Shown one piece after another: positions 30,956-47,346 of a stretch of DNA of 64,000 nt. The stretch comes from Thermoplasmatales archaeon (lineage in GTDB: Archaea; Thermoplasmatota; Thermoplasmata; Thermoplasmatales; GCA-001856825). Location: positions 1,417 to 65,416 of the forward strand of contig JAVYRX010000005.1 of the NCBI GenBank assembly GCA_038729485.1, in the 5' to 3' direction. A model generated the notes under the pieces. The model was not told where the DNA came from, did not search any database, and saw nothing but the letters and a program-made list of their open reading frames with translations. The translations under genes were made by a program, and so were the position numbers. Positions within the stretch are counted from its first letter, which is position 1. Every line of letters begins with the position of its first letter.

Positions 30956-31597
30956 TCATCTGCTTTTTAATTTAAGGGTCTTGAAGACGTTAAGTGCGTA
31001 AGTGAACGCTGCATCATCCTGTCCTTTGTCTACTAGCTTCCAGAAATTATCGTCTTCAAATAGGCGTTGAAAATAGATTGCTTTGGTGCTATGCTCTGTA
31101 GCGATTATTTCATTCCTTACCTTCTCCAGAATTGGCAGAGCGCAAGAGTAAGAATTCACCACCGACGATATCTTCTTTCTTAGAAACCTGGATAGTGAAG
31201 GAGATTTTCCCTCCGTTGAAACGCTAACGATGACTCCATTAGAGTCCAACACAGCTGGGAAAATGAACGGGCTGTCTCTCCTGTCGACGCTGTTGAAAAG
31301 GACACCTTTTCTTTCGCAATAATCTCTAATCTCTTCATTTAGTTCAGGCTCATCGCTGGCAATAACCACGATTGTGTTTCTTTCAATGAATTTATCCAAT
31401 TGAGACGGTTCAGTGATATGGAGTCGCACGGTTTCAACGTTCTTGCCCTCTATCATCTCCTTGAATTCATCGGCTACCACGATTATTCTATCGAACTTGG
31501 AAGACAGATTATTCAACTTCTGTGCGGCAGCTTTTCCTCCGCCGATTATCAGCAATTTCTTCCCTGTGACATTGAGCATTATTGGAATGAATTTCAT
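30956..31597 (-). CDS. sirC: Precorrin-2 dehydrogenase / sirohydrochlorin ferrochelatase (SirC/Met8/CysG-N)
   Basis: MKFIPIML..TGKKLLIIGGG, NSVD, FIFPA, VSTEGKSP. Confidence 0.9.
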   Translation of the reverse strand: MKFIPIMLNVTGKKLLIIGGGKAAAQKLNNLSSKFDRIIVVADEFKEMIEGKNVETVRLHITEPSQLDKFIERNTIVVIASDEPELNEEIRDYCERKGVLFNSVDRRDSPFIFPAVLDSNGVIVSVSTEGKSPSLSRFLRKKISSVVNSYSCALPILEKVRNEIIATEHSTKAIYFQRLFEDDNFWKLVDKGQDDAAFTYALNVFKTLKLKSR

Positions 31598-31598
31598 T

Positions 31599-32456
31599 TC
31601 ATCTTCCTCTTGTGGTGGCTTCCTGCGAGACCTGGGGTTCAACCAGCTCGATTAACGCATCTCCGGTAGCACGAGATAAATTACGCGATGGTAGAATTCC
31701 TTCGTCAATAAGCGCGTTAACTACTTTCCCTATGACAATGATGCTAGGTGATCTTATTCTATGTTTTTCTATTACGCTTGGCAGTTCGCGAAGATAGCAA
31801 AAGAATGTGCGTTCCCGCCTAGTAGTTCCGTTTTCGATAACGGCGACGCCCATCAATTGATCCATTCCACCCTCAATGAGATGAGACACTATTTCTGAGG
31901 CAGTTGCAACGCCCATTAAAATAACTATTGTTCCGTCGAATCTCGAAATTTCATTCCAATCGTTTTCCGTTCCAGTGGATTTTCTATGGCCGGATATAAT
32001 CAACAATGATGAAGAGTAATTCCTGTGCGTTAATGGTATCCCTAAGGCGCTGGGAACTGATATTGCAGACGTGAGTCCAGGAACAACCTCGAATGGAACG
32101 TTGTTTTTCTTTAAAAACTCTATCTCCTCTCCTCCCCTGCCGAATATAAAAGGGTCGCCTGATTTCAATCTTATAATGATTTTTCCAACCTTAAAGTATT
32201 GAAGCATTAGCTCGTTTATTCTATCCTGTTTGGATCCAGGCTCAACTCCATGTTTAGTTCCAACGCAAATCCTTTTACATGATGCCGGAGAGAGTTTGAC
32301 AATACTTCGATCAACGAGCCTGTCATAAAGAAGCACATCGCATTTCTTTATCAATTTCAAAGCCCTTACTGTAAGGTAATCCGGATTTCCCGGGCCCGCT
32401 CCCACTAAATATATTTTTTTAGAAATTTTTAAATGTTCACCTTTTTTTCGTTCCAT
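31599..32456 (-). CDS. cobA: Uroporphyrinogen-III C-methyltransferase (SUMT)
   Basis: [43 protein letters not shown]. Confidence 0.95.
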
Positions 32457-32468
32457 GTTCTTATCCTT

Positions 32469-33854
32469 TTATAGCTCAATAGCGTAGCCTACCAGATCCA
32501 TCAATCCATGATTTTGCATGTCTACCTTGTGATAGTTCATTACAAATGGGAATTGTGCTTTGTCTATTGCACAAGGCGATACCATGTGGTGTGAGCCCGT
32601 TTTCCAGGAAAAGTACACTGCGGGCCATCCGGCCCAAGCCCTGTACTCATTCCATTCTTTTTCATCCGCAAGAAGGCCTCCTCCTGCACCACAGCAGAAT
32701 GTTTTCTCTTTGGTGAATTCCGATTCTACAGTTTCCCTTACTACTGCGTTAAGGACGAACCGCGGCTCATTTACAAGGTTGCCGCCTCTCGCGAGGTTGC
32801 ACGGATCGTGATAGTTGTAAAGGTCGTCATTCTTGTTTTTGTCTACCTTAATTTTCCCCCTTTCAATTGCCTTCCACGTAACCTGATGTATATGCCTTAG
32901 CTGTATCCCCTTTTTTTCCAGTTCATACCTGACATAGTTATTCGCCGTTCTCCATCCATGACCGCACTCTCCCCAAACGACGAGCTTAACTCCTCTTTTA
33001 ACAGCTTCGTTAACTACAATGTCTCCAAATTCTCTCATGTGTCGTTCGCTCGCAAACGTTCCAAAGTTTGCAGCCTCAGTTGCGGCTGAGGATAGAGTCC
33101 AATCAGTGCCGAGGGCAAATAGCGTCTTTGCATAACCCTTAAGTGTGTCGTTGTTTACAGCTATGTCTGCAGAAGAGGGAACTACAAGAACTTCGGAATG
33201 GGAAATATCTACTGGTATTTTGATTTCCTTCCCAGTCTCTGAAAGCATCTCTTCCTCAAGAAATCCAGTTACATTTTTTATGAATTTATCCTTAAGACCC
33301 ATGTTGTTACCCGTCTTGTAGACCTGAGACATAGTTGCTGCAACGTACTCAGGTATCAGTCCCATATCTGTTAAAATATTCCTAATATTTCTTGTTATTT
33401 CAGATTGGTCAATTCCCGAAGGGCAAAAAACAGAACATCTCCTGCACTCCGTACACTGATAATAGTAAGAATAGAGGCGATTTAGATCTATCTGATCTTT
33501 CTTAATCCTCCCTCTTGCCCTGTAGATGTCTCTTACAAGATTAGCTCTCCCTACTGGTGAGTTGTTTGGATCTCCGGTAGCTATGAACATCTGGCACTTG
33601 TCGATGCATTCGCCGCAACGTACGCAGCTCTCCATAAATGTTACGAAGGCCTTACTTTTCCTAAGTTCTTCAAACCTCTTAATGAAATAGTCATTGTCTT
33701 CCTCCCTGCTTACTTTGATGTCCTTAAGAAGTGGTTCTTTTGCAGGCCTTTCAAAGGTAGACTGAGCCCACTCGAGTGTTTTCTGTTTTGATAGCCACTC
33801 CTCTGCCTTTCCGCTGGGACTTTCTAGAATTATGTTCCTAATTTTTGGATTCAT
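32469..33854 (-). CDS. dsrK: DsrK, HdrD-like Fe-S/CCG protein
   Basis: CVRCGECIDKC and CTECRRCSVFCP ferredoxin motifs, GECGHGWR, YHDPCN, FCCGAGGG, PCAIDKAQ. Confidence 0.93.
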   Translation of the reverse strand: MNPKIRNIILESPSGKAEEWLSKQKTLEWAQSTFERPAKEPLLKDIKVSREEDNDYFIKRFEELRKSKAFVTFMESCVRCGECIDKCQMFIATGDPNNSPVGRANLVRDIYRARGRIKKDQIDLNRLYSYYYQCTECRRCSVFCPSGIDQSEITRNIRNILTDMGLIPEYVAATMSQVYKTGNNMGLKDKFIKNVTGFLEEEMLSETGKEIKIPVDISHSEVLVVPSSADIAVNNDTLKGYAKTLFALGTDWTLSSAATEAANFGTFASERHMREFGDIVVNEAVKRGVKLVVWGECGHGWRTANNYVRYELEKKGIQLRHIHQVTWKAIERGKIKVDKNKNDDLYNYHDPCNLARGGNLVNEPRFVLNAVVRETVESEFTKEKTFCCGAGGGLLADEKEWNEYRAWAGWPAVYFSWKTGSHHMVSPCAIDKAQFPFVMNYHKVDMQNHGLMDLVGYAIEL

Positions 33855-34596
33855 TTATCTCACCAGGATGGAAAATCGAGTACATCGTTGGATTTGTGAA
33901 GAATGAATATGGGTGCATAAATTTGCTAAACGGAAAGTAAATTAGAAGTGTGGAAGCAATGAGAAAATGTACCACGAATTGAATTGCGGTCGGAACGAAT
34001 ACGGGTGACAAGTGTATGAGGGAATATATGAAAGGCGTTACTTCGTTATAAGCGTAAAGCGGAGGAAGTGTAAATCTCATAATTATTCCGGATACTCCAA
34101 GAGCAAGTATCAGTAGGATTGAAAAATAATCGGACAAGTAGCTTATTTTTCTCATATATATGCTGCTATTCCTTCTGATAAACAAGTAGGCCCCAAATCC
34201 CACCATCACTATGGCCAGTGAAGTTCCGAGGTAGTCTCCAATTGCGGACATTGCCTTTTCGCTCACGCCTATTGATGAAAAATAAGGCATTAGCACTATG
34301 TCAAGATGGGCTGCTATTACTATCCATAGCGTCCAGTGAAAGATGGCGGATGAAATTCTAAGTGAGGGATCGTTTTTCATACTAGAGAATAGAAATATCC
34401 TAGAGAGAATGTTCTTGAACGCAAGTAATCTTGTGTTATTCCCAGGATATGTGAAAAGGTAAGGATACCCCAGAAACGTTCCGGAGGGTCCTTTTGGGAC
34501 GAATATCCATCTTATCAAGGTGACTATTGTTCCAATGACGAATACTATAACTGCAATGTATGCATACGCGACAATGGCCCAATCTACAGGACTCAT
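33838..34596 (-). CDS. dsrM: DsrM, NarI-like membrane b-type cytochrome
   Basis: Several TM helices with heme His residues (FHW...AAH; VHF...YFPFSKFMH); lies between dsrB and dsrK. Confidence 0.92.
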   Translation of the reverse strand: MSPVDWAIVAYAYIAVIVFVIGTIVTLIRWIFVPKGPSGTFLGYPYLFTYPGNNTRLLAFKNILSRIFLFSSMKNDPSLRISSAIFHWTLWIVIAAHLDIVLMPYFSSIGVSEKAMSAIGDYLGTSLAIVMVGFGAYLFIRRNSSIYMRKISYLSDYFSILLILALGVSGIIMRFTLPPLYAYNEVTPFIYSLIHLSPVFVPTAIQFVVHFLIASTLLIYFPFSKFMHPYSFFTNPTMYSIFHPGEINESKN

Positions 34597-34624
34597 ACCA
34601 CGTCACGCCATCCATCTGGAATGC

Positions 34625-35695
34625 CTAAGCAGTCCCTCCATCCCTAAGAGTCATTATTCCCCTGATGTCTAGATATTCCATGTTTTGTTCAAAGTAGGGA
34701 ATACCGGTCTTTTCAAAGAATTTCTCCCACCCTATTCTGTCAACCCAGTCCGCGATCCTTTCTCCTTTCCTGGCATCCTTCTTCCAGGTATCAACAATCC
34801 TGACCACTGCAGCTACGGTTTTAGGATAGTATGGTGGCTCATTAGGAAGGTAAGGTATTACAATCCTCGAGAGAGTGGTGCCAACCCTTGATGGAACGGC
34901 CTTCCCTCCAATTGCGATTGCGTGTCCGTCTGTTTTTTCAGGTGTTTCAAATATTATTCCAGCACATGCCCCTACGCATAGGCCACAGCCTATGCACAGA
35001 TTTCCCCTAATTTCAAGGGTTTTGGAACCGTCCGGCAGCTGCTTTATCTGAATTGCCCCTACCGGGCAGGTATATGCCGTTCCCTGGAGATCGCATTTTG
35101 CCACGTCTGGCGTTATTATGGGAATTTCAGTATGAATGCCACTTATAGATATATCTGTAAGGAAGCTGTTTCCACAGGAACTAGGACATCCGGATGCAGC
35201 AACGGTCAATTTTGCAGGCAATTCTTCCTTGTTGAAGTATTTGCCAAGCGCGTTTGCAATATTTTGAACAATGGACGGCGCGTCTGTTGCCGCCAAAGCA
35301 CAGTGAAAATAACCGGCACAGGACGTCAGGCTCCACAGGTGTCCGTCCCATCCTCCAACGGGAAAACCGAGGGCCATGAGATCAGTCCTCAATGCGATTG
35401 CATCCTTCAAGTCCTTAGTTATGAATTCCATGTTGATCGCTCCGGTGAATCTCATACTACCTCCGGAATATTTACGAGCAAGAGCAGAAATTTTCCTCAT
35501 CGTTTCAGTACTGTATCTCCCATTTGGGGTTGAACCCGCCCTCACTGTGTATATCTTATTTCCGTTTATATCTACATGCTCAACTATTCCAGGTTCCACT
35601 ATCTTATGCGATTTCCATTTGCCGATGGAATCTTTTAAATAAGTGGGTATGAAGTTTGTGTATGGTCTGGGTGGCCCTTCCTGCAATTTAATCAC
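34625..35695 (-). CDS. dsrB: Dissimilatory sulfite reductase beta subunit
   Basis: GKWKSH...PG, YTVRAG, GFPVGG, CAGYFHC (CX5C), SGCPSSC, CIGCGLC, GERIADWVDRIGWEKFFEKTG. Confidence 0.95.
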   Translation of the reverse strand: MIKLQEGPPRPYTNFIPTYLKDSIGKWKSHKIVEPGIVEHVDINGNKIYTVRAGSTPNGRYSTETMRKISALARKYSGGSMRFTGAINMEFITKDLKDAIALRTDLMALGFPVGGWDGHLWSLTSCAGYFHCALAATDAPSIVQNIANALGKYFNKEELPAKLTVAASGCPSSCGNSFLTDISISGIHTEIPIITPDVAKCDLQGTAYTCPVGAIQIKQLPDGSKTLEIRGNLCIGCGLCVGACAGIIFETPEKTDGHAIAIGGKAVPSRVGTTLSRIVIPYLPNEPPYYPKTVAAVVRIVDTWKKDARKGERIADWVDRIGWEKFFEKTGIPYFEQNMEYLDIRGIMTLRDGGTA

Positions 35696-36872
35696 CTCCC
35701 ACAGCTTTGTTTACTTCTTTCGGAATTTCCTCTCTGGCTTTCTCATCCACGGCATAGAATACATTTGTCCTTAGGTCTTTAGAATTCATCGCCCTTGGTT
35801 TTTCTTTCAGCATATCTAAGAATCCCTTCATTCCAACTCTCAATAGCATATCTCCAATCCTCTCTTTCCTGGCTGCCTGATCAATGTAAACCTCAACTAT
35901 CCTGTCAATAATGTCAAGTGCTTCATCAGGCGAGTTGAGCTTAGTTAGTAATTTTCCAGTCAGCGGTCCCTTCTTTCCTCTTAATTTTCCCCCGATGTAA
36001 ATGAGGTATTCTTTCTCCTTTCCGGGCATTATTGCGCCTTTACTCTTCCTAACGCACAACATGCATTGATTGCAGTCTTCTCCTCTGATGCTTATCGTAT
36101 TTCCAAGGCGGGAGATTGCACCTGTAGGACAATTGTTCACAATCCGATCGATTTCCTCGTTTGTCAAATTTTTGATAAGGCTTTCATTCACGTCTGGAGC
36201 GCCCTTCCATGACCCTACTATCCCGATATCTGCTTTTTGAGTTGCTCTTCCGCAGTCAATAGGGCAACCGGAAACCTTAACCTTCACCTTGTGGGGAAAT
36301 GTTGGATACTTGGCAAAATCGTTGTATCTATCATAAAATTTATCTCTGAACTCTTCCGTATTTAGATTAGAATATTCACACAGAGCGCTCCCAACACAGG
36401 TAGTCGTTGCCCTAAATGCATCGCCTGTTGAACCACATTCGTAGCCATTTTGTCTTAGTTCGGCAATGAAATCCCTTATTTTTTCCTTAGGTATTCCGGG
36501 CACTTCTATATCCTCTCCAGTGCTTATGGCGTGAATAAGGCCAACTCCATACTTATCCGCAAGTTCACATAACTTGTCTAGCATGTCGGAAGTCACAAAA
36601 TTTCCGGAGGGAATCAGAATTCTTACGATGTTAGCACTCTCTCCGATGTCAGGCCTGCTCGTTACTCTCATGAGGATTCCGGTTGGGGCTCCTGGCACAG
36701 AAACGTAGCCACCGGTCGTAAATAAATCACGTTTCAATGCTAAAGAAGCCCCGTACAAATCCACGGGATATCGAGTCTTTTGTGCCTCTTTTACGAAATT
36801 TGGCCATTCGCCCTTCTTGAGGTCGTCTAGTATTTTTCTTCCTCTAACAACTTCTTCTGGCAATTCCGTCAT
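35688..36872 (-). CDS. dsrA: Dissimilatory sulfite reductase alpha subunit
   Basis: LDDLKKGEWPNFV, CVGSALCEY (CX5C), FPHKVKVKVSGCPIDC, CPTGAI...CNQCMLC, ERIGD. Confidence 0.95.
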   Translation of the reverse strand: MTELPEEVVRGRKILDDLKKGEWPNFVKEAQKTRYPVDLYGASLALKRDLFTTGGYVSVPGAPTGILMRVTSRPDIGESANIVRILIPSGNFVTSDMLDKLCELADKYGVGLIHAISTGEDIEVPGIPKEKIRDFIAELRQNGYECGSTGDAFRATTTCVGSALCEYSNLNTEEFRDKFYDRYNDFAKYPTFPHKVKVKVSGCPIDCGRATQKADIGIVGSWKGAPDVNESLIKNLTNEEIDRIVNNCPTGAISRLGNTISIRGEDCNQCMLCVRKSKGAIMPGKEKEYLIYIGGKLRGKKGPLTGKLLTKLNSPDEALDIIDRIVEVYIDQAARKERIGDMLLRVGMKGFLDMLKEKPRAMNSKDLRTNVFYAVDEKAREEIPKEVNKAVGGD

Positions 36873-37171
36873 TTTTTTCCACCCCTAAACTCATCTAAGG
36901 CAAATTTTGTTCCAACAACGTAACCTTTATTTTTTAGATATTGAGAAAACTGGTTTTGTTCGTCCTGGCCTAGTTCTACCTTTATGATTGGTATCTCACT
37001 TTCGTTGGCTTCTATCTTTTCGCATTTAGGAATAACATTAATGCAATTTGGGCATATCTGGTCCCTCGTGAGAAGGTACTTCATTCTTTTTGATCTCACG
37101 GGATTTGAGGCCTCCTCCTCCGTAAAGATATCGATTGCGTATCCGCATATTGGACATACAAGATAGATCAT
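36869..37171 (-). CDS. Unknown 100-aa Cys-rich (CPIC...CPNC) protein inside the dsr operon
   Basis: ATG abuts the dsrC stop and its stop overlaps the dsrA ATG. Two CxxC motifs. Confidence 0.75.
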   Translation of the reverse strand: MIYLVCPICGYAIDIFTEEEASNPVRSKRMKYLLTRDQICPNCINVIPKCEKIEANESEIPIIKVELGQDEQNQFSQYLKNKGYVVGTKFALDEFRGGKK

Positions 37172-37522
37172 CTACACACACCCCGTAGGTTTAGGAGCCC
37201 CAGCCATCCTACAGGCTCCCTTTGCAGGGCCCGTTGGGAATAGCTGGTATATGGTCTTAAGATCAAATCCAGTACTTTTTGTAAGCATCCTAATCGGTGG
37301 GCAACTGTCGTAGGTTAGATAATATTCACGCAGATAATTTATGATCTTCCAGTGCTCGTCTGTGAGCGTTGAAATGCCCTCTTCTGCAGAAATCGCATTC
37401 ACAAATTCTGGGCACCAGTCTGCTGGGTTTAAGATAAAACCATCCTCGTCAATTTGTATGTCCTTGTAAGACCCATCTTTCAGCTTAACTTTTACAACTT
37501 TATTGTTGCTTTGCTCGGCCAT
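37172..37522 (-). CDS. dsrC: DsrC sulfur-carrier protein, both C-terminal cysteines present
   Basis: IDEDGF, LTDEHW.II.YLR.YY, LFP.GPAKGACRMAGAPKPTGCV (CX10C). AGGTG SD before ATG 37522. Confidence 0.96.
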   Translation of the reverse strand: MAEQSNNKVVKVKLKDGSYKDIQIDEDGFILNPADWCPEFVNAISAEEGISTLTDEHWKIINYLREYYLTYDSCPPIRMLTKSTGFDLKTIYQLFPTGPAKGACRMAGAPKPTGCV

Positions 37523-37550
37523 AAATAGCACCTAGCTTAGCATAGTAAAA

Positions 37551-37583
37551 TTAATTATCAATTGGACACCTTACAGATTAGGT
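37551..37583 (-). promoter_or_regulatory. Palindromic operator candidate plus TATA-like box of the dsr operon
   Basis: Minus strand: ACCTAA-TCTG-TAAGGT (37583-37568), 6 nt gap, then TTGATAATTAA. Confidence 0.55.
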
Positions 37584-38003
37584 AAAATACGACAGAATTG
37601 GCTTTAATCGCGTTGACGGTTGCGGCCTGGTCTAAAAAATTATATTCTATCTCAGCTGAAGCTTAAAAGTAATTACGCAGCCTTATTTTGTTTAACAGAG
37701 TATAATCCTTAAGAGATTATCAAAGTGTTCAAAGGATCTGAATAGGCTGCAGAATGATATTATTAAATACGAGACGTGGATAGTTCGCAACCGGATTATT
37801 AGAACGTTAAACAGTATTCTCACGACTGTAATTCTAGGCACATCGTAGCTTATTGATGTGACAGATCTAATTACTGCGTTAATAACCAGATGCGATGAAA
37901 CGTAGACCGATTGATTTCGTATACAAATTAAACAAATGGTTATAATTTATAGCAAATCTTCTGGATTGAACTCTAAAAACAAGCACAATTTTATTTTTCT
38001 CTG

Positions 38004-38023
38004 AATCCAGATTACTCTGGATT
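38004..38023. repeat. 8-bp perfect inverted repeat in the dsrC-dsrE intergenic region
   Basis: AATCCAGA-TTAC-TCTGGATT. Confidence 0.5.
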
Positions 38024-38171
38024 TTCAGTCTAGCTAGTTTTACTTTTTTCAATATGAAGAAATCAATGAATGAATAGATCTAAATTTCATAAAGAATCCA
38101 AGTGGATCAATTTCATAAATTTTATAGAATGGGCCTTGAATTATGTGGGGCTGTACCAAACCTTGGCGGTA

Positions 38172-38227
38172 CTTAAGCATTGGGCTATTATGCTTATTTC
38201 CCGAATGCTTAAGGGAGTGGATTAAAC
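38172..38227 (+). promoter_or_regulatory. 10-bp inverted repeat and operator-like site upstream of the DsrE-like gene
   Basis: CTTAAGCATT (38172-38181) / AATGCTTAAG (38204-38213). The right arm lies within CCCGAA-TGCT-TAAGGG, followed 6 nt later by TTAAAC, ~28 nt before the ATG. Confidence 0.5.
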
Positions 38228-38249
38228 TCTTAGATCAACATTTTAAACC

Positions 38250-38624
38250 ATGAGCCAAGGAGAGATCTCAAAGAACAAGAAGATAGCATTTTTTTCCATG
38301 GTTCCTCCAAGTGACAATGCAAGACTAGAAACAATGTTGGGCTATGCTAACGCAGCTGCGTTAATGGACTATGAAACTTTGATTTTCTTCTATCTAGATG
38401 GAGCCATAATAGGAAAGAAGCAGGTCTTTGAAAAATTGGATCAAAAAATTAGGGACAGAGTTAAGGAATCCCTGGACAACGAAGTCATATTACGAATATG
38501 CTCACTTGCAGCCAAGACGTTCGGAATAGACAAGTCCAATTTAGTCCCAGGGTTTGAAATAGCGGGAATAGCGTTTTTCTTTGCCTACGCTGAGGATGCC
38601 GATATAGTTCTTTCTTGGAGTTAA
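38250..38624 (+). CDS. DsrE/F-like (peroxiredoxin-family) sulfur relay protein
   Basis: IFFYLDGA, one Cys in RICSLAAKTFG, PGFEIAG...AEDADIVLSW; 124 aa DsrE-fold pattern. Confidence 0.8.
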   Translation: MSQGEISKNKKIAFFSMVPPSDNARLETMLGYANAAALMDYETLIFFYLDGAIIGKKQVFEKLDQKIRDRVKESLDNEVILRICSLAAKTFGIDKSNLVPGFEIAGIAFFFAYAEDADIVLSWS

Positions 38625-38659
38625 TAGAAGTACCAATTGAAGTGTTATCCCGGGTAATG

Positions 38660-39265
38660 TCACGACTCGTAAAGGTAGTTAGATACAGTTTTCTTTAATC
38701 CTCTTCTGAGCAGTTCTGAGAGAGAAGCGGGAGTAACGCCTAGGAAGTGAGAAAGCTCCGTCAATGATATCCTGCCTTCTATGTCAAAATAGCCTTTCCT
38801 AAGAGCTTCTTCCAATGCATATCTTTCCTTTTGGGTCAATTCCTGATGCATAAATGGTGAAACGCTCATTATTGTATATTTCAATCCCGTGTTATCCAAT
38901 TCCTTCTTGAAAAGCTTGAGATCCCCTCTTGAAGCAATTAGGAACCTGACTTGCACATGATTTTTGCCTATTGAATGTGTTCCGATAGGGTTTATGAAGT
39001 GGATTTTTGAGACCAAGCTGCAAACAGAGCAGCTAGGACTTTCTATCCAGAATGCTCCATTTCCGACCCTGCGGAGCTTGAGGTTTTTTAATCTGGAAAC
39101 ATCTATGGGGTCGCATGAGTCCGTCGGCTTAACTCTATGAAGCGTATAGTCAGGTCTCATGAGAAGCCTAACTATAGTGCAATTGACGTCGGCCAAGGCA
39201 TTTGTAACTATGCAGTCTTCCCTTTCAATTTCGACAACTACTTCCAGGGCAGTTTTGGCTGTCAT
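38660..39265 (-). CDS. Bat/HTH-10 family archaeal transcriptional regulator with CxxC in the N-terminal domain
   Basis: C-terminal LTQKE..ALEEALRKGYFD..GRISLTELS..LGVTPASLSELLRRG; SCSVC motif. Confidence 0.9.
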   Translation of the reverse strand: MTAKTALEVVVEIEREDCIVTNALADVNCTIVRLLMRPDYTLHRVKPTDSCDPIDVSRLKNLKLRRVGNGAFWIESPSCSVCSLVSKIHFINPIGTHSIGKNHVQVRFLIASRGDLKLFKKELDNTGLKYTIMSVSPFMHQELTQKERYALEEALRKGYFDIEGRISLTELSHFLGVTPASLSELLRRGLKKTVSNYLYES

Positions 39266-39448
39266 ATCACTTTACTACCCCTATGTATATTCCATTCATA
39301 AACCTTTTAGCATGTAATGTGGCAGAATTAACTTACGAACTTCGGTCAATCAAAATTCTTCATTCGAAATACAACCTCCAATAAATGTAGAGAATGAGAA
39401 AAATATGTCACATCACGCTTCTATAATTGGCAATTTTTAGAGCAGCAA

Positions 39449-39509
39449 GCCTTACGGATAAAGGTATAGTCTTTTATAATTTTCGTAAATTTAACCTTAT
39501 AGACTAGCT
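39449..39509 (+). promoter_or_regulatory. Two palindromic operator candidates flanking the TATA box of aprBA-qmoABC
   Basis: GCCTTA-CGGA-TAAAGG (39449-39464), 7 nt gap, TTTTATAA (39472-39479). Second copy ACCTTA-TAGA-CTAGCT (39494-39509) is 13/16 identical to the dsrC site. Confidence 0.55.
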
Positions 39510-39572
39510 TGGCCGTGCGTAAATCAACGCATGCCAATAGAAGAGGCTAGACTATAGGAGTTGTAGATAATA

Positions 39573-40025
39573 ATGCCGACTTATGTAAACCCAGAGAAAT
39601 GTGATGGTTGTAAAGCGCTAGCTAGAACTGCCTGTCAGTACATATGTCCAAACGACCTGATGCTGCTGGACATGACGAAAATGAAGGCATATAATCAGGA
39701 GCCAGATATGTGCTGGGAGTGCTTTTCATGTATAAAGACATGCCCAAAGGATGCAATTGAGGCAAGGGGATATGCGGATTTTGTCCCCCTTGGAGCAAAG
39801 GTTACACCTAAAAGAGGGACCGACTCAATTTTGTGGACCGTTAGGTTCAGAAACGGGAAGATCCTGAGATTCAAGTTTCCAATTAGGTCAACACCTTGGG
39901 ATTCTATTGATCCATTTCAGGGTTTTGAATCTCCCACTTTGAACATGCTAAAAGGTCCCGAATTAGCGGGTGGCCATGAATGCAAAGATCCCCAAAAGAT
40001 CACGCTAAAGAAAAAGGGAGCCTAA
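39573..40025 (+). CDS. aprB: Adenylylsulfate reductase beta subunit
   Basis: MPTYVNPEKCDGC...ACQYICPNDLM...CWECFSCIKTCP...RGYADFVP...WTVRFRNG..LRFKFPIR. Confidence 0.97.
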   Translation: MPTYVNPEKCDGCKALARTACQYICPNDLMLLDMTKMKAYNQEPDMCWECFSCIKTCPKDAIEARGYADFVPLGAKVTPKRGTDSILWTVRFRNGKILRFKFPIRSTPWDSIDPFQGFESPTLNMLKGPELAGGHECKDPQKITLKKKGA

Positions 40026-40039
40026 GGGGTGAAAAATAT

Positions 40040-41980
40040 ATGGCTGTTGAATCTTATAAGAAAATTGAAACCTATAAGGCATCCGATGTTCAGACAAAGG
40101 TAGTCGAGACTGATGTCTTGATAATAGGGGGAGGGATGTCAGGCTGCGGAGCGGCTTATGAAGCAGCTTACTGGGCTAAGGCAGCGGGAAAGAACGTAAC
40201 TCTTGTCGAGAAGGCCGCCATAGAAAGAAGTGGGGCAGTCGCCCATGGCCTCTCTGCAATAAATTGTTATCTTGGACTGTCAGGAAGGTCACAATTTACA
40301 AATAATAAACCAATAACGCTTGAAGAATTCGCCAGATACGTAACCCTTGATATGATGGGAGTCTCAAGAGAAGACCTTGTTGTAGACTATGCGAGAAACG
40401 TGGATGATTCTGTTCATCTCTTTGAGAAATGGGGCCTCCCGATATGGAAGGATGAGAACGGAAAATATGTCAGAGAGGGAAGATGGCAGATAATGATCAA
40501 CGGGGAATCGTACAAGCCTATAGTGGCAGAGGCAGCCAAGAAAGCAATAGGTGAAGCGAACATATACGAGAGGGTCTACATAACGCATCTCCTATTGGAT
40601 AAGGATGACAGGAGCAAGGTTGCTGGTGCGGTGGGATTCAGCGTGAGGGATCCGATATTCTACGTCTTTAAGGCTAAGGCCGTTATCATTGCCACAGGGG
40701 GAGCTACCGGCCTGTTTAGACCTAAGAGCACCGGTGAGGGAATGGGAAGAATATGGTACGCTGTTTTCAATACCGGCTCAGGTTACGCAATGGCAATAGA
40801 GGCAGGTGCACACACTACTCAGATGGAACACAGATTCATACCGACTAGATTCAAGGATGGTTACGGACCAGTTGGAGCATGGTTCCTCCTATTCAAGAGC
40901 AGGGCTACGAACGCGTATGGAATGGATTACACAGAAAATACAGCTGCAATAGAAAAATACAAGCCCTACGCCAACGCATCACCTGTACCTACGCCGCTTA
41001 GGAATCATCAGATGATTGAAGAGATGGTTCAGGGGCGCGGCCCAATATACATGAGAACTGAAGAAGCCCTCCAGAAGCTTTCAGCAGGTGACCCAAAGAA
41101 TACTAAAAAGTTGCTCGAAGATGCATGGGAGGATTTCCTAGATATGACAATAGATCAGGCACTCCTTTGGGCAGCCACCAATACGGAGCCAGAAAATGCA
41201 CCTTCTGAGATTGTTGCTGCGGAGCCATACCTGATGGGTTCGCACTCTGGATGTGCAGGCCTATGGGTGTGCGGTCCTGAAGATTTAATGCCAGATGAAT
41301 ACAAGAAATTGTTTCCCCTTTCGTATAACAGGATGACAACCCTAAAGGGGTTGTTTGCAATAGGCGACAACGCAGGTGCGAGCCCTCATAAATTCTCTAG
41401 CGGTTCATTTACTGAAGGAAGAATAGCGGGAAAGGAGGCAATAAGGTACGCAGTTGAACAGGGCGATGCAACAGTTGACGACTCTAAGATAGAAGAGCTG
41501 AAGAAGAAAATATTCAAACCGATGGAAACGTACGATCAATTCAAAAATGCTACGACCGCTGAGGAGGTTAATCCAAACTACCTATTTCCTAAGCAGACAT
41601 TATGGAGGCTCCAGAAACTCATGGACGAATATGCAGGCGGCCCTTCTACCTGGTTCAGGACAAATGACCACATGCTCAATGAGGGTCTTAAGAAATTGCG
41701 CCTTCTGAGGGAGGACATGGATAAGGTTGCAGCAAGAAACCTGCATGAGCTGATGCGAGCGTGGGAAATGAACCACAGGATAACCGTTGCTGAGGCACAC
41801 ATGGAGCACCTTAGATTCAGAAAAGAAACTAGATGGCCCGGGTATTACTATAGGACGGACTATCCGGAAATAAACGACAATGAATGGAAATGTTTCACCG
41901 TGGGGAGGAAGAATCCTGCAACAGGAAACTGGGACATTCAAAAGGTGCCTTTCATTCAGGTGGCAGATTACACAATCTGA
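40040..41980 (+). CDS. aprA: Adenylylsulfate reductase alpha subunit
   Basis: ERSGAVAHGLSAIN, WQIMINGESYK, RFKDGYGPVGAWFL, WEDFLDMT, HKFSSGS, ETRWPGYYYR. GGGGTGA SD before ATG 40040. Confidence 0.98.
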   Translation: MAVESYKKIETYKASDVQTKVVETDVLIIGGGMSGCGAAYEAAYWAKAAGKNVTLVEKAAIERSGAVAHGLSAINCYLGLSGRSQFTNNKPITLEEFARYVTLDMMGVSREDLVVDYARNVDDSVHLFEKWGLPIWKDENGKYVREGRWQIMINGESYKPIVAEAAKKAIGEANIYERVYITHLLLDKDDRSKVAGAVGFSVRDPIFYVFKAKAVIIATGGATGLFRPKSTGEGMGRIWYAVFNTGSGYAMAIEAGAHTTQMEHRFIPTRFKDGYGPVGAWFLLFKSRATNAYGMDYTENTAAIEKYKPYANASPVPTPLRNHQMIEEMVQGRGPIYMRTEEALQKLSAGDPKNTKKLLEDAWEDFLDMTIDQALLWAATNTEPENAPSEIVAAEPYLMGSHSGCAGLWVCGPEDLMPDEYKKLFPLSYNRMTTLKGLFAIGDNAGASPHKFSSGSFTEGRIAGKEAIRYAVEQGDATVDDSKIEELKKKIFKPMETYDQFKNATTAEEVNPNYLFPKQTLWRLQKLMDEYAGGPSTWFRTNDHMLNEGLKKLRLLREDMDKVAARNLHELMRAWEMNHRITVAEAHMEHLRFRKETRWPGYYYRTDYPEINDNEWKCFTVGRKNPATGNWDIQKVPFIQVADYTI

Positions 41981-42007
41981 ATTTTCCTTTTTATCCGGTG
42001 ACACCTA

Positions 42008-43255
42008 TTGAACGTGGATCTCCTGGTCATAGGGGCTGGGCCTTCCGGAATAACCGCCTCCCTTGAAGCTGCTGAATTGGGCTTAACAGTAGCCTTGGCG
42101 GAAAGAAACCCGTACATAGGAGGCCGGGTAGTCCAGTTTTTCAAATATTTTCCAAAGCTGTGCCCGCCACAGTGTGGTCTTGAGATATTCACTAAGAGAA
42201 TGAAGGCTTTAGGCAACATAAAGCTCTTAACAAATGCATCCGTGAAGAGCATCGTAAGGGATGGAGAATATTTAGATGCTAGAGTTCTGGTTCATCCAAG
42301 ATTTGTCAACGATAGATGTACGGCGTGTGGAAAGTGCGTTGATGTGTGTCCAGTAACGAGACCCGATAGCTTCAATCTTTCGTTGGGAAACACGAAAGCC
42401 ATATACCTCCCAAATTCCTATGCATACCCGTTCATTTATTCTATAGACGATAAATACTGCAAGGGAAAGGAATGTTCAAAGTGCGTCGAGGCCTGTCCGT
42501 ATGATGCCATTGACCTTGACGAAAGGGAAGAGGCAATAAAAATTGTATCTAAGTCCGTAGTTATAGCGACCGGTTGGGAACCATATGATGCAACAAAAAT
42601 TTATGGTCTAGGGTTTGGAAAGTATCGTAACGTCATTACAAATTTAATGCTGGAAAGGATGGCGTCTCCTAATGGCCCAACCAGAGGGAAGATTGTTAGG
42701 TTGTCTGACGGAAAAGAGCCTAAGAGAATTGCGTTCGTTCAGTGTGCTGGGTCTAGGGACGAGAATAATCTTCCTTACTGTTCCCAGATATGCTGTTTAG
42801 CTTCTATGAAGGAAGCGCAGTATATTCGTAGCCAGTGTAAAGAGTCTGAAGTGGAAATATTCTACATAGACCTTAGAGCATATGGTCTTAATGAAAATTT
42901 CCTGAGAAAGATCGTATCTGACAATTCCATTAAATTGACTAGAGGCAAGGTAACCAGGATAGCTGAAAATGAAACAGAAAACCTCCTAGTTAGAGCAGAA
43001 GACACTATTACTGGTAAGAAAATAACCGAGGAATTTGATCTTGTCGTTCTAGCGACCGGTATGGAGCCGACAGCCAAAAAAGAAGGCATAGAAGGCGTTA
43101 GCTATGACGAGTGGGGGTTTGTCGTAGATCAAGATGGAATATTCGGTTCGGGTGTAGCGGGGAGGCCAATGGACGTCAAGCAGTCTAATGAAATGGCTAC
43201 TGGAGTCGTATTAAAAGCCTTGCAGAAGGTCGCTGAGGTAAGGGGTAAGAAATGA
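42008..43255 (+). CDS. qmoA: QmoA (HdrA-like flavoprotein)
   Basis: IGAGPSG, YFPKLCPP.CG, VQCAGSRDE..LPYCS.ICC.AS.K; directly follows aprA. Confidence 0.93.
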   Translation: MNVDLLVIGAGPSGITASLEAAELGLTVALAERNPYIGGRVVQFFKYFPKLCPPQCGLEIFTKRMKALGNIKLLTNASVKSIVRDGEYLDARVLVHPRFVNDRCTACGKCVDVCPVTRPDSFNLSLGNTKAIYLPNSYAYPFIYSIDDKYCKGKECSKCVEACPYDAIDLDEREEAIKIVSKSVVIATGWEPYDATKIYGLGFGKYRNVITNLMLERMASPNGPTRGKIVRLSDGKEPKRIAFVQCAGSRDENNLPYCSQICCLASMKEAQYIRSQCKESEVEIFYIDLRAYGLNENFLRKIVSDNSIKLTRGKVTRIAENETENLLVRAEDTITGKKITEEFDLVVLATGMEPTAKKEGIEGVSYDEWGFVVDQDGIFGSGVAGRPMDVKQSNEMATGVVLKALQKVAEVRGKK

Positions 43256-45480
43256 AAGATGATGCAAGGGCATTCATATGTAAAGGGTGTGGCATTGGTG
43301 AAAGGTTGGACTTGGTAAAGTTGAAGGAGATAGCAGAAAAGGAATACTCTGCACAGACAGTGATCTGCGATCAACTTTGTAATGAATCTAGTGTGATCAG
43401 AGAGTGCTTGGCAAACGGAGCTAAAAAGGTGCTAATTGCGGCATGCACACAGCGTGAAAAAATACCAAATTTTCAATTTGAAAATGCAATCATTGAAAGG
43501 GTTAATCTGAGGGAAGGCGTAGTCTGGTCTCATAAGGGCGAGGATGATCAGCAGGGAATGGCAGAGGATTATATAAGGATGGGATTTGCCTCCCTCAAAA
43601 ATAAATCTCCCCCCAATCAACTCGAATTGGCTCAGTCTAAAGACATTTTGGTCATAGGAGGAGGGATCACAGGCATCACAGCCGCGTCAGAAATTTCAAT
43701 GGCTGGATATAATGCTTTCCTGGTGGAAAAAGAGGAGAAATTGGGTGGCAAATTGAACTTCTACGATAAAATACTCCCTATCCATTTCCCGTATACTGAT
43801 CTCATCGATGCTAAAAAATTCCTTGAAGAAAAGATGAAAGAGGTCAGCCAGCATAGCAATTTGAAAATATTGACGTCAAGCACAGTCACTAGCGTTACCG
43901 GTCAGCCTGGAGCTTTCTCTGTCGTTGTGAAGAACCCTAGTGGCGAGTTGAATCTTAATGTCGGAGCTATTGTTGTGGCGACAGGATGGAATCCATACGA
44001 TGCTAAGAAGATTACAAAATTAAAATATGGTCAAAGTCCGCTAATCATGACAAACGTAGAAATAGAAAGATACCTCTGCAAGAAGAAGAGCGAGCTGAAT
44101 TCGCAGGGATCTCCGAAATCGTTTGCTTTCGTTCTCTGTGCTGGTCAAAGGGACACAGAGAATATACCTTATTGTTCCTCTGTTTGCTGCCTCACTTCTT
44201 TGAAGGAAGCCCTCATGCTACGGAATAAGGTTAAGGAATCAAAGGTGTACATTTTTTACAAGGATATAAGGGCGCTTGGCATATATGAGGAGTTCTACAA
44301 AAAGGTGCAGAGGGATCCAAACATATTCCTTGCCAAAGCAAACGTAGAAGACATATCTTTTGAGGAAAATGAAAACAAGGTCATTCTGACGGTTCGTGAT
44401 ACGACCCTCAATGTTGATTTGGATGTTAGGGTTGACAGGGCCGTTCTTGCGGTTGGAATTCTTTCATCCATGTTAGGTCTATATAATGTGAAGGAAGAGC
44501 ATCCAGATTCGGGGCCCTTGATTTACGATCATCTCAACCCGGTACCGCTAAGTGAAGGTAATAGTGCTTTAGGAGGAGAGAGAATACTGAACTTGAAATA
44601 TAGACAGGGACCAGAACTGCCAACACTTAGCGACGGGTTCCCTGATTCACATTACATCTGTTTCCCCTACGAGTCTAGGAGAACTGGCATTTTCCCTGCA
44701 GGTACTGTTCGTTCTCCGTCTACGATTCTTGAATGCATGGAGGATGCAAGGGGTGCTGCATTGAAGGCGATAAAAACTGTGGAGCTTGCATTTAAGGGGG
44801 AGATAGTAGAACCTCCACGGGTCCTGGAAGCAGATCACATAACGATATCTCTTCAGAGATGCACACAATGTAGAAGATGTACGGAAGAATGCCCATTTGG
44901 CGCTCTCGACGAGGACGATAAGACATATCCACTCTATAATCCGTTGAGGTGTCGAGATTGCGGAATATGCATGGGAGCGTGTCCTGTACAGGCGATATCA
45001 TTCAATCTGTATTCCGTAGAGCAAATGCATAGCATGATAAAATCAATAAAAACCCCGGAAAAAGAAGACAAATTAAGGATACTTGTATTTGCTTGCGAAA
45101 ATGACGCTTATCCTGCACTAGATATAGCCGCGCAGAATGGCATAAAATATTCAGACGAAGTCAGGATCATTCCCGTAAGATGTCTTGGTTCTGTTAATTC
45201 AGTCCTTATAGCGGACGCACTTTCTGCAGGGATCGACGGGATCCTCATGTTAGGCTGCAAATATGGCAAGGATTACCAATGTCACTTCATAAGGGGCTCG
45301 GAACTCGCAAGCCTTCGCCTTGAAGGTCTCAAGGGTACGTTCGAAAATCTAGCTCTTGAGCCAGAACGTCTCAGTCTTCAACAAATTGAACTTTCCGACT
45401 GGAACAAGCTGTCAGGTGTCATAGATCAATTCGTCGGAACCGTAAGAACATTTGGACCAAATCCATATAGGGGGTTCTGA
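43252..45480 (+). CDS. qmoB: QmoB (HdrA-MvhD fusion)
   Basis: ERVNLREG, CAGQRD, YRQGPELP, SHYICFPYE.RRTGI, CTQCRRCTEECPFG, and MvhD-like CENDAYPA...CLGS...YQCHF. Confidence 0.95.
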   Translation: MKDDARAFICKGCGIGERLDLVKLKEIAEKEYSAQTVICDQLCNESSVIRECLANGAKKVLIAACTQREKIPNFQFENAIIERVNLREGVVWSHKGEDDQQGMAEDYIRMGFASLKNKSPPNQLELAQSKDILVIGGGITGITAASEISMAGYNAFLVEKEEKLGGKLNFYDKILPIHFPYTDLIDAKKFLEEKMKEVSQHSNLKILTSSTVTSVTGQPGAFSVVVKNPSGELNLNVGAIVVATGWNPYDAKKITKLKYGQSPLIMTNVEIERYLCKKKSELNSQGSPKSFAFVLCAGQRDTENIPYCSSVCCLTSLKEALMLRNKVKESKVYIFYKDIRALGIYEEFYKKVQRDPNIFLAKANVEDISFEENENKVILTVRDTTLNVDLDVRVDRAVLAVGILSSMLGLYNVKEEHPDSGPLIYDHLNPVPLSEGNSALGGERILNLKYRQGPELPTLSDGFPDSHYICFPYESRRTGIFPAGTVRSPSTILECMEDARGAALKAIKTVELAFKGEIVEPPRVLEADHITISLQRCTQCRRCTEECPFGALDEDDKTYPLYNPLRCRDCGICMGACPVQAISFNLYSVEQMHSMIKSIKTPEKEDKLRILVFACENDAYPALDIAAQNGIKYSDEVRIIPVRCLGSVNSVLIADALSAGIDGILMLGCKYGKDYQCHFIRGSELASLRLEGLKGTFENLALEPERLSLQQIELSDWNKLSGVIDQFVGTVRTFGPNPYRGF

Positions 45481-45481
45481 G

Positions 45482-46606
45482 ATGTCTGTAAGCAATGTAA
45501 GGGGAAATAGACCGAGACTGGACGATTCATTCGTAAGGGATGTCATCAGGTTCGGGGGTTCGGATCTAAAGATATGCATGCAATGCTCTGTATGCACTGT
45601 TGCCTGTCCGCTTAGCCCAGATCTGAATCCATTCCCTAGGAAGGAAATGATATGGTCCCAGTGGGGGTTGAAAGATAAACTTCTGAAAGACGCAGACATT
45701 TGGATGTGTCACGAATGCGGCGATTGCTCAAAGGAATGCCCGAGAAACGCGAAGCCAGGCACTGTGATGACTGCACTTAGGACGGTGGCGGTCTCTCATT
45801 ACTCATGGCCAAGATTTATGGGAAAAGCTTTCAGGGAAAAATGGTTCCTCCCATTATTCACCATAATTCCGATAGCTCTTTTCTTCCTTGTTTACTTTCT
45901 CTTTGGCCTATCAATACCTGCTACTGGGCCGGTTTATTTTTCTTCTTTTATCCCTTTTAATCTGGTGGATGAAGCTGGCATTATTGTTGGTATATTCGCA
46001 ATATTCTCTCTCAGCTACGGCTCGTGGAGGTACTACAAAGGGATCAGTGAGGAGAAAAAGGGGGAACTTTCCTTTTTGAGGTCAGCGCTAATCACGCTCA
46101 AAATATTCCTGTTGCATTCAAATTTCAGCAAATGCGTATCAAACCACAAGAGGTACTATTCTCATTTCCTAATATTCTATGGTTTCTTAGTCCTTCTTTT
46201 GGCGACATTTATCGGTGCACTCGAGATTCATCTATTTGGCTTTTCTCACCTTTTGATCGGAGAACCTCAGAACATAATTGGAAACGTAGGTTTAATAGTG
46301 ATATTCCCTGGGATAGTGATTGCGTTGTTAAATAGATCCTCCAAGAAAGTTCCAAAGAAGGAGACATATTTCGATTGGTACTTCCTTGTTTTGCTTTCTC
46401 TCGTCGTCATTACGGGCTTTACTATCGAAATACTTAGGCTGATTGACAGCATTAGCGCATATTACGTTTACGCGTCTCATTTGGTATTCGTCTTCATGCT
46501 TATTGCATACGCACCCTACTCAAAATTGGCCCACGTTTTTTACAGGTTCTTTGCCCTAACCTACCTCACATCTATAGGCAGGAATCCAACTGAGGCGTTG
46601 CCATAA
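45482..46606 (+). CDS. qmoC: QmoC (HdrC-like Fe-S plus membrane cytochrome b)
   Basis: CMQCSVCTVACP, PFPRKEM.W.QWG, CHECGDCSKECPR, TM region ending PYSKLAH. Confidence 0.94.
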   Translation: MSVSNVRGNRPRLDDSFVRDVIRFGGSDLKICMQCSVCTVACPLSPDLNPFPRKEMIWSQWGLKDKLLKDADIWMCHECGDCSKECPRNAKPGTVMTALRTVAVSHYSWPRFMGKAFREKWFLPLFTIIPIALFFLVYFLFGLSIPATGPVYFSSFIPFNLVDEAGIIVGIFAIFSLSYGSWRYYKGISEEKKGELSFLRSALITLKIFLLHSNFSKCVSNHKRYYSHFLIFYGFLVLLLATFIGALEIHLFGFSHLLIGEPQNIIGNVGLIVIFPGIVIALLNRSSKKVPKKETYFDWYFLVLLSLVVITGFTIEILRLIDSISAYYVYASHLVFVFMLIAYAPYSKLAHVFYRFFALTYLTSIGRNPTEALP

Positions 46607-47173: not shown

Positions 47174-47181
47174 CTTACGCG

Positions 47182-47239
47182 TTGCTTGATGTTGAGGACT
47201 TCCACAGGTACGTTTATTGCAGTGGATCCCTTCAAGCAA
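47182..47239 (-). promoter_or_regulatory. Multi-stem hairpin in the probable 5' leader of adkA
   Basis: Nested pairings TTGCTTGA/TCAAGCAA, GGGA/TCCT and TCCAC/GTGGA. ATATATAT TATA-like box at ~47263-47270. Confidence 0.45.
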
Positions 47240-47346
47240 GACGTTTTTGATTGTGGATTGCAATATATATGTTGAACCTCATCGATAAGGGAAACTGAAC
47301 TGTCAGTAACCTCGAAATGAAATTATAGTTGCTTTGTCCCTAATTC

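Follow-up and report, generated by a model that had tools for sequence, protein, structure and literature searches.

The 64,000-nucleotide stretch of DNA analyzed here (the window; positions 1417 to 65416 of contig C5, JAVYRX010000005.1, in assembly GCA_038729485.1 of a Thermoplasmatales archaeon) carries a ~16-kb island at window positions 30215 to 46606 that, together with a sat-DUF6955 gene pair on contig C20 and a gene for a soluble pyrophosphatase, probably provides a complete dissimilatory pathway from sulfate to sulfide for facultative anaerobic respiration. The source genome (G000) is a draft of 1.31 Mb in 23 contigs and is 92% complete. The island appears to be a chimera of two archaeal modules, an early Thermoplasmata-type Dsr module and an Archaeoglobus-type Apr/Qmo module, because its DsrAB belongs to a clade made up only of Thermoplasmata while its AprA and QmoB are of the Archaeoglobus type.

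Genes were called from the open reading frame (ORF) listing with Pfam and NCBIfam scans, and curated cutoffs are passed by AprA, AprB, QmoC, CobA, the SirC-like protein, and DsrC. The initial annotation, made from the sequence without database searches, had named 13 of these genes, and all 13 are present in the order and on the strands it gave, as uninterrupted ORFs; the DsrE-family gene and the HTH_10 regulator between dsrC and aprB are additions to its list. The satP-like gene lies leftmost in the island and qmoC is last:

30215..30913, plus strand: satP-like GPR1/FUN34/YaaH (AceTr-family) anion channel (PF01184, 79 bits; NF038013 AceTr_1, 49.5 bits, cutoff 50)
30956..31642, minus strand: sirC, CysG-N-terminal-like precorrin-2 dehydrogenase (TIGR01470, 92.1 bits, cutoff 62.3; PF13241; Sirohm_synth_M)
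31599..32456, minus strand: cobA, uroporphyrinogen-III C-methyltransferase, first step towards siroheme (TIGR01469, 280 bits, cutoff 185)
32469..33854, minus strand: dsrK, cytoplasmic iron-sulfur (FeS)/CCG subunit of DsrMK (NF045796, 328 bits, below the cutoff of 400; Fer4 and CCG domains)
33838..34596, minus strand: dsrM, NarI-like membrane di-heme b subunit (PF02665, 64 bits; NF038037, 72 bits, below the cutoff of 300)
34625..35695, minus strand: dsrB (TIGR02066, 325.7 bits, below the cutoff of 341.5)
35688..36872, minus strand: dsrA (TIGR02064, 273.5 bits, below the cutoff of 392.85)
36869..37171, minus strand: orf100, 100-amino acid (aa) zinc-ribbon protein, encoded between dsrC and dsrA (without a Pfam or NCBIfam assignment)
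37172..37531, minus strand: dsrC (TIGR03342, 118 bits, cutoff 53.5; PF04358, 121 bits)
37532..38249, no strand: divergent intergenic region of 718 bp; a conserved element lies immediately upstream of dsrC
38250..38624, plus strand: DsrE-family putative sulfur-carrier protein, a single gene (PF02635, 55.9 bits)
38660..39265, minus strand: HTH_10 regulator with a Cys-rich N-terminal domain (PF04967, 44.5 bits)
39573..40025, plus strand: aprB (TIGR02060, 212.6 bits, cutoff 135.65)
40040..41980, plus strand: aprA (TIGR02061, 1010 bits, cutoff 641.75)
42008..43255, plus strand: qmoA, HdrA-like flavoprotein (HdrA-family matches over residues 3-371)
43252..45480, plus strand: qmoB, HdrA-like with a C-terminal FlpD/MvhD domain (PF02662, 135 bits)
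45452..46606, plus strand: qmoC, membrane heme-b/FeS subunit (NF038018 qmoC equivalog, 344.7 bits, cutoff 300)
46616..47263, minus strand: archaeal adenylate kinase, abutting qmoC (NF003122, 199.8 bits, cutoff 155)

The adjacent DsrA and DsrB each best match their own subunit kind, both among family models (TIGR02064 and TIGR02066) and among PDB structures, where the best matches are Archaeoglobus fulgidus DsrA (3mm5_A, 167 bits) and DsrB (3mm5_B, 226 bits). DsrA residues C159, C165, C203, and C207, which form the CX5C...CX3C siroheme/[4Fe-4S] motif, are invariant together with the ferredoxin-domain residues C248, C267, and C273 in 15 diverse DsrA sequences, C270 is invariant in closer sets of 8 and 15 sequences, and the CX5C, CX3C, and ferredoxin cysteine motifs of DsrB are visible in the alignment with 3mm5_B. 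DsrC ends in GACRMAGAPKPTGCV, a Cys-x10-Cys-Val C-terminus in which both redox cysteines are kept, identifying it as DsrC and not TusE or RspA, and a NarI-like DsrM and CCG-domain DsrK adjoin dsrAB, as expected of DsrMK. Related loci were sought with two peptide patterns, which reach only the Thermoplasmata and the Rokubacteria/Hydrothermarchaeota types of DsrA; the operon dsrC-orf100-dsrA-dsrB-dsrM-dsrK is kept, as far as the contigs reach, in 18/18 Thermoplasmata loci, with dsrK 62 to 91% identical across them.

DsrA belongs to a small and well-delimited group. A word-indexed search returns 55 clusters at 53 to 90% identity before a drop to 36%, all of the named ones being assigned to Thermoplasmata, Thermoplasmatales, Thermoplasmataceae, or Euryarchaeota. 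Exhaustive HMMER scanning of 1.84 billion representatives brings up just 15 proteins at E ≤ 1e-30. The named clade members include MV2.Eury.2014 (62% DsrA identity), ARK-15 (62%), and A_EUR_06 (65%), and two loci with DRTY isolate names, L027 and L029, are 90 to 91% identical to the window's DsrA. The nearest DsrA proteins outside the clade are those of Rokubacteria and Hydrothermarchaeota (37 to 41%) and the fused protein P0062 (37%), followed by Thermocladium (38%), Pyrobaculum (36%), and a second Thermoplasmatota type (36%); DsrA of Desulfobaccales, which is of the bacterial reductive kind, is just 26 to 30% identical. In a concatenated DsrAB tree the window groups with L027 to L030 (Shimodaira-Hasegawa-like approximate likelihood ratio test [SH-aLRT] 100) within a 19-row Thermoplasmata clade (SH-aLRT 82) that includes MV2.Eury.2014 and ARK-15. 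These relationships place the window's DsrAB in what appears to be an early-branching, reductive-archaeal clade confined to Thermoplasmata, and the grouping with oxidative bacterial types that the initial annotation had raised against its own proposal is not seen, in trees that contained no labeled oxidative-type sequence.

The minimal composition dsrABCMK proposed earlier also holds in the genome as assembled. There is no match to DsrH, and thus no DsrEFH, and none to NrfD/DsrP; no DsrL-like gene is linked to dsr, the two GltD/NfnB-like genes (494 and 506 aa) lying elsewhere in the genome. DsrD (PF08679) likewise gives no match, in a search without a positive control that was also silent in 14/14 control genomes. 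Two CbiA/CobQ-family genes are present, with DsrN possibly among them.

The Apr/Qmo module has a different affinity. The aprA ORF opens at 39980, with the start likely at M21 (40040), and AprA is 75% identical to that of Archaeoglobus profundus, 69% to A. veneficus, and 60 to 67% to A. fulgidus, with Chloroflexota and others at ~60%; it aligns to the A. fulgidus structure 2fja_A with 1001 bits over residues 27-665, and AprB and AprA both pass their curated equivalog cutoffs. Downstream of aprBA are two HdrA-like subunits, the second with FlpD, and QmoC, the composition expected of QmoABC; homologues of the second carry the Joint Genome Institute (JGI) name QmoB, and qmoA likewise follows aprA in relatives G004, G031, and G034. 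In the AprA tree the Thermoplasmata form a clade (support 100/100) that is sister to A. profundus (99/99) within an Archaeoglobus-type clade (100/100), and a tree constrained to keep the Archaeoglobus rows in a single clade is worse by 50.7 log-likelihood units and is rejected by the approximately unbiased (AU) test (p-AU 0.018), for a group named only after the tree had been seen. In the QmoB tree, the sister group of the Thermoplasmata rows (SH-aLRT 100) is one whose cluster contains the A. profundus protein. From these trees, AprBA and QmoABC would be of Archaeoglobus type, with AprA nested inside Archaeoglobus next to A. profundus, and the simplest history would be a single transfer of aprBA-qmoABC into Thermoplasmata from Archaeoglobi close to A. 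profundus, joining an early-branching DsrC-zinc ribbon-DsrABMK set. The Archaeoglobus origin is a point absent from the initial annotation, as are the oxygen reductases encoded in the genome. A later spread of Apr/Qmo than of Dsr, suggested by near-equal identities to G004 and to G031/G034, was considered and rejected; the QmoB and DsrAB topologies agree, and that of AprA does not resolve the matter.

All components of sulfate respiration are thus found in one genome, namely Sat, pyrophosphatase, AprBA, Qmo, DsrAB, DsrC, and DsrMK, with sat lying outside the island on contig C20, beside the DUF6955 gene. Judged from the known roles of these families, which also suggest the direction of the pathway and the route of its electrons, Sat would activate sulfate to adenosine 5'-phosphosulfate (APS), with pyrophosphatase pulling the reaction, and AprBA would reduce APS to sulfite using electrons passed from menaquinol by membrane-bound QmoABC. 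DsrAB, its siroheme supplied through the island's cobA and sirC, would then reduce sulfite onto DsrC, and the resulting trisulfide would be reduced by DsrMK with menaquinol, releasing sulfide. Electrons from organic substrates would enter the quinone pool through Nuo, and NuoD is encoded in the genome, implying that a quinone-reducing complex exists. Adenylate kinase could recycle AMP, and the adk-qmoC adjacency is shared with G004, or adk may be a flanking housekeeping gene. Respiration of this kind would be facultative because the genome also codes for oxygen reductases, which would reflect either a facultative lifestyle or simply protection; acidophily is attributed from papers on close relatives only.

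Several points weigh against this reading. DsrA, DsrB, DsrK, and DsrM have clear best matches, yet all score below the NCBIfam curated cutoffs; we read the scores of DsrA and DsrB as a limit of the models and not as evidence against DsrAB, and the whole Thermoplasmata DsrAB clade is divergent, its members being named 'hypothetical protein' by NCBI. A database search for the origin of Sat gave only generic ATP-sulfurylase clusters, and the after-the-fact naming of the AU-tested group tempers the AprA result. No [NiFe] hydrogenase was found in the genome, so that hydrogen is no evident donor, and no sulfate transporter was identified, no search having been aimed at one; absences of any kind are weak in a genome that is only 92% complete. 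Lastly, the genome codes for a heme-copper oxidase and a cytochrome bd oxidase, the island has its DsrE-family gene, and contig C3 has a TusA-DsrE pair, all of which fit a sulfur oxidizer too.

It is accordingly conceivable, if rather unlikely, that the same genes run in reverse, with DsrE/TusA-type carriers delivering sulfur to DsrC, DsrAB forming sulfite, AprBA and Sat converting it to sulfate with a gain of ATP, and electrons passing through DsrMK and QmoABC into the quinone pool and on to oxygen, or that they serve sulfur disproportionation. Besides the oxidases and the carriers just described, this would agree with the occurrence of Sat, AprAB, QmoABC, DsrC, and DsrMK in both oxidizers and reducers (PMC10591310), and with descriptions of Thermoplasmatales in acidic springs and pit lakes as sulfide oxidizers (PMC11094006, PMC9326234). 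The combination of DsrEFH, DsrL, and oxidative-type DsrAB that would mark an oxidative Dsr system is not found in this 92%-complete genome, in which DsrH and a dsr-linked DsrL-type gene are both missing; its DsrAB is of the reductive-archaeal clade, and archaeal Dsr has so far been characterized as reductive only, according to PMC10591310. AprBA and QmoABC, moreover, would have come from the sulfate-reducing Archaeoglobus. Sulfate reducers commonly possess oxygen reductases as protection. As separate observations on these genes, TusA lies directly beside a second DsrE-family gene at G000:C3:16914-17524, a pair of a type associated with sulfur oxidation systems, and the gene for heme-copper oxidase subunit I is split over two contig ends (C11:26805-27506 and C8:23-607), which probably places C11 next to C8 in the genome.

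The distribution of these genes was followed in 40 relatives, 18 of them from the same genus, and in an even class sample of 301 genomes that includes G000. The window's DsrA type is present in 7 of the 40 relatives, namely G001, G004, G011, and G016 of the genus, G031 and G034 of genus g7, and G040 of genus g14. Six of the seven also have the same types of AprA (81 to 92% identity) and Sat (60 to 85%), the exception being G040, which has neither, like published sulfite-only genomes. The supercluster is even more complete in relatives, because the sat-DUF6955 pair lies inside the cluster in three of them; it is divergent from aprBA-qmoABC in G004, and G031 and G034 both have the arrangement qmoC-sat-DUF6955-aprBA-qmoAB, oriented divergently to the dsr operon. 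In G016, sat is on one contig with dsr and apr. In the class sample, 13 of the 301 genomes have a DsrA match, 8 of the window type and 5 at 34 to 35% identity. Genomes G193, G232, G255, G088, and G082 combine the window's DsrA type with only a different AprA type (53 to 58% identity), and just one of these five has a QmoC match, at 28% identity. Among the genomes searched, the Archaeoglobus-type Apr/Qmo is thus limited to genus g7 and some genomes of this genus.

It is improbable that the organism respires sulfite alone through DsrABC-MK, as in YNP-TEG, and uses Sat, AprBA, and Qmo for sulfite detoxification, its oxidation to sulfate, or assimilation. The closest characterized Dsr relatives do reduce sulfite and not sulfate, with MV2 enrichments forming sulfide from sulfite and leaving sulfate unreduced (PMC7174415), and aprBA-sat occurs without dsr or qmo in G036 and in Thermoplasma sp. 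FL (supplement of PMC10504309). Here, the full QmoABC, including its membrane subunit, accompanies the Apr type, which is physically linked to dsr in 7 genomes from two families and has no AprA match at E ≤ 1e-30 in the dsr-free genomes of the genus (0/13). Sulfate reduction to sulfide remains the preferred account of the island and its partner genes. Also widespread among Thermoplasmatales is a second AprBA type (51 to 58% identical, ~610 aa), in many cases accompanied by a sat of its own but not by Qmo. It is seen at L060 (G036:C15), at L059 (G018:C3), and in G193, G232, G255, G088, and G082; some of its carriers are dsr-free, and its possible roles are the oxidation of sulfite, assimilation, and reduction independent of Qmo.

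An assembly or binning artefact joining sulfate-reducer DNA to a Thermoplasmatales contig is barely credible, even with sat on a small, lower-GC contig (C20, 10.3 kb, 39.6% GC) of a 23-contig draft, since the island is internal to an 84-kb contig with normal tetranucleotide composition, third-position GC content (GC3), and codon use, its gene order recurs elsewhere, and G016 has all three gene sets on one contig. The 5-kb windows of the island rank at 0.27 to 0.63 in tetranucleotide similarity to the whole genome among its 491 windows, the pooled codon distance to the genome is 0.135 for the island versus 0.123 for its flanks, and GC3 is flank-like. The layout qmoA-aprAB-HTH_10-dsrE-dsrC...dsrK-cobA-sirC is identical in L027, L028, and L029, which are independently assembled named metagenome-assembled genomes (MAGs), with the satP-like gene also at the island in L027 and L029 but missing from the L028 locus. 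Comparison with G007, G010, and G012, dsr-free genomes of the same genus, places the left border between 30107 and 30215, and therefore puts the satP-like gene inside the island; these genomes keep the order hemB...hemH-M1 peptidase, and none of the window's genes from 30215-52598 comes next. On the right side, gdh and the M1-peptidase gene are on separate contigs in all three, so the island coincides with a rearrangement point. It is well integrated in the genome and not an assembly chimera, and the chimeric edges named beforehand as a way for the proposal to fail are not seen, there being no compositional break at either border. Affiliation with Thermoplasmata, also claimed earlier, is borne out by the closest named DsrA-bearing MAGs, which are deposited as 'Thermoplasmatales archaeon', and by flanks that are syntenic with same-genus genomes.

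Siroheme supply is tied to dsr more closely than the physical clustering of cofactor genes claimed in the initial annotation. Of 18 genomes in the genus, the five that carry dsr, and no others, have cobA; it is absent from the 13 dsr-free genomes and also from 6 other genomes of the family. A search of the window's genome for a CbiX-type chelatase finds none. The N-terminal domain of CysG is bifunctional in CysG and Met8p, and because the SirC-like protein matches this domain, it may also act as a sirohydrochlorin ferrochelatase and insert the iron. The neighboring tetrapyrrole cluster included in the same proposal is real (hemB-hemA-hemD-hemC-hemL-(orf)-rSAM-hemE-hemH, 19172-27651) but is a genus-wide heme cluster, present also in dsr-free relatives and outside the island. 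Its radical S-adenosylmethionine (rSAM) gene codes for a TIGR04053 protein related to AhbD and stands alongside hemE and hemH, and the genus seems to produce heme b by a route, unusual among archaea, in which siroheme is not an intermediate; the absence of cobA from dsr-free genomes fits such a route. Elsewhere, a small contig of 38.6% GC carries two tetrapyrrole-methylase paralogues that are 31 to 33% identical to cobA (G000:C18:3681-9082).

In G018, of the same genus, a different dsr type (L058, G018:C7:226000-240000; DsrA 37.5% and DsrB 34% identical) is followed by cobA-sirC genes that are 61% and 51% identical to those of the window, together with a dsrE-like gene (54%). One dsr cassette seems to have taken the place of another here, next to a set of cofactor and carrier genes that was retained.

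The gene between dsrC and dsrA, orf100, is as constant as the operon itself, being present at this position in 18/18 Thermoplasmata loci with 42 to 80% identity. Residues C6, C9, C40, C43, and C50 are invariant in 16 sequences and include a CxxC...CxxC zinc ribbon. An orf100-homologous stretch is fused to the N terminus of DsrA in P0062, and apparently also in Rokubacteria, where loci L045 and L047 have weak matches (31 to 32% identity, 41 to 42 bits) inside 469-aa DsrA ORFs, just upstream of dsrA. The protein is probably an extra subunit bound to DsrA. Its AlphaFold2 (AF2) model is confident (predicted local distance difference test [pLDDT] score 93.6), but a Foldseek search of the PDB finds nothing at E ≤ 0.001, the best match being rubredoxin (E 1.1), and a wide VIA-align search, with a best Z of 3.0, identified no known fold; no DsrD structure is among the fold matches listed, which does not exclude one. 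Published lists of Dsr genes do not include it, the supplementary table of PMC10504309 skipping its position between DsrC and DsrA.

The divergent spacer and the genes beside it also have conserved features. About 60 alignment columns before dsrC (about 37532-37600) are near-identical in five species, as is a second non-coding element just upstream of the dsrE-like gene (about 38190-38249); the rest of the spacer is unalignable, and the window's dsrC-dsrE spacer is ~150 to 370 bp longer than those of relatives. An Rfam scan of 30000-47500 gives no match at E ≤ 0.1, and the elements are candidate operator or promoter sites for the adjacent HTH_10 regulator, which probably switches the two divergent operons. 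Of the 18 Thermoplasmata loci, 9 have a homologue of this regulator next to dsr (L027-L031, L033-L035, and L043; 35 to 92% identity). The DsrE-family protein has a cysteine in the context 'RICSLAAKTFGI', and its gene adjoins dsr in L027 to L030, in addition to the copy at the G018 cluster. The satP-like gene is beside the dsr cluster in L027, L029, L030, L031, L035, L037, and G004 and does not follow the M1-peptidase gene in dsr-free G007, G010, and G012; its product could be a bisulfite, hydrosulfide, or acetate channel. All four roles, of orf100, the DsrE-family protein, the HTH_10 protein, and the satP-like protein, are putative.

The system combines features of known sulfite and sulfate reducers. 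Colman et al. 2020 (PMC7174415) describe this DsrAB lineage in YNP-TEG/ARK-15 Diaforarchaea (MV2-Eury and SJ3-Eury) without Sat or bona fide AprAB, with genomes of ~1.3 Mb and no DsrD or DsrEFH reported. These share with the window the DsrAB clade and the operon dsrC-orf100-dsrA-dsrB-dsrM-dsrK (L036 and L038; DsrA 62%), whereas in the window's genome sat, aprBA, and qmoABC are additional and the operon is fused to cobA-sirC. With Archaeoglobus it shares the AprA relationship to A. profundus, a QmoB that is sister to the A. profundus group, and a QmoC above the equivalog cutoff, and the order that we take to be that of A. fulgidus, sat-orf-aprBA, resembles the sat-DUF6955-aprBA order of G004, G031, and G034. 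Archaeoglobus DsrAB, in contrast, is of the bacterial reductive type and comes with DsrD and DsrMKJOP (PMC10504309), whereas here it is of the early archaeal type with DsrMK only. The Thermoproteota reducers Vulcanisaeta, Caldivirga, Thermocladium, and Pyrobaculum are similar in their reductive-archaeal DsrAB and minimal DsrABCMK, but the Qmo of Vulcanisaeta is type II, more HdrA-like, whereas the Qmo found here clusters with that of Archaeoglobus, which is type I in the same scheme (PMC10504309).

The initial annotation had correctly pointed to earlier reports of dsr-bearing Thermoplasmata MAGs (PMC7174415, PMC11094006, PMC12948486). Qi et al. 2024 (PMC11094006) assign dissimilatory sulfate reduction in acidic springs at Tengchong to Thermoplasmata (ARK-15 and Thermoplasmatales), and the closest named loci, L027 and L029, carry the same island as the window; an mLife 2026 paper (PMC12948486) reports RA-DsrAB in four Thermoplasmatota families, in clades 1 and 5. 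In the passages covered, both treat the genes as survey markers (dsrAB, aprAB, and sat); the terms 'aprAB' and 'qmo' do not occur in the main text of the mLife paper. The main-text passages covered from the two papers give no account of how the island is built, of QmoABC, or of the zinc-ribbon gene, and within the same scope full-text literature searches turned up no description of the Archaeoglobus origin of Thermoplasmata Apr/Qmo, the island anatomy, or the cobA linkage. A table in PMC10504309 includes two incomplete 'Euryarchaeota' MAGs (SpSt-938 and SpSt-1258) with Dsr plus Apr and/or Qmo. The trait itself, as dsrAB plus aprAB in Thermoplasmata, is therefore already published (PMC11094006, PMC12948486), and the evolutionary angle is modestly new.

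There is an even chance, in our estimate, that these genomes represent a third, independently assembled lineage of sulfate-respiring archaea, in which an early-branching DsrABC-MK system, known until now from sulfite-only reducers and equipped with its zinc-ribbon subunit, was upgraded by transfer within Archaea of an A. profundus-like aprBA-qmoABC, putatively with sat, in a facultatively aerobic lineage described as acidophilic. We know of no acidophilic archaeal sulfate reducer in culture. When and how the reduction of sulfate, as opposed to sulfite, arose in Archaea is debated, and the island offers a compact and testable case of an ancient sulfite core joined to a borrowed quinone-linked APS module and its own siroheme supply, with natural variants that have and lack it within a single genus. 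It also points to overlooked parts beyond current models of the Dsr pathway, namely the zinc-ribbon protein, the DsrE-like carrier, the AceTr-type channel, and the HTH_10 regulator. If the proposal is true, two generalizations would need amending: that organisms with early-branching DsrAB almost all lack the capacity for sulfate reduction (PMC7174415), and that sulfate reduction reached Archaea through two interdomain transfers, one to Archaeoglobus and one to Vulcanisaeta (Neukirchen et al. 2023, PMC10504309).

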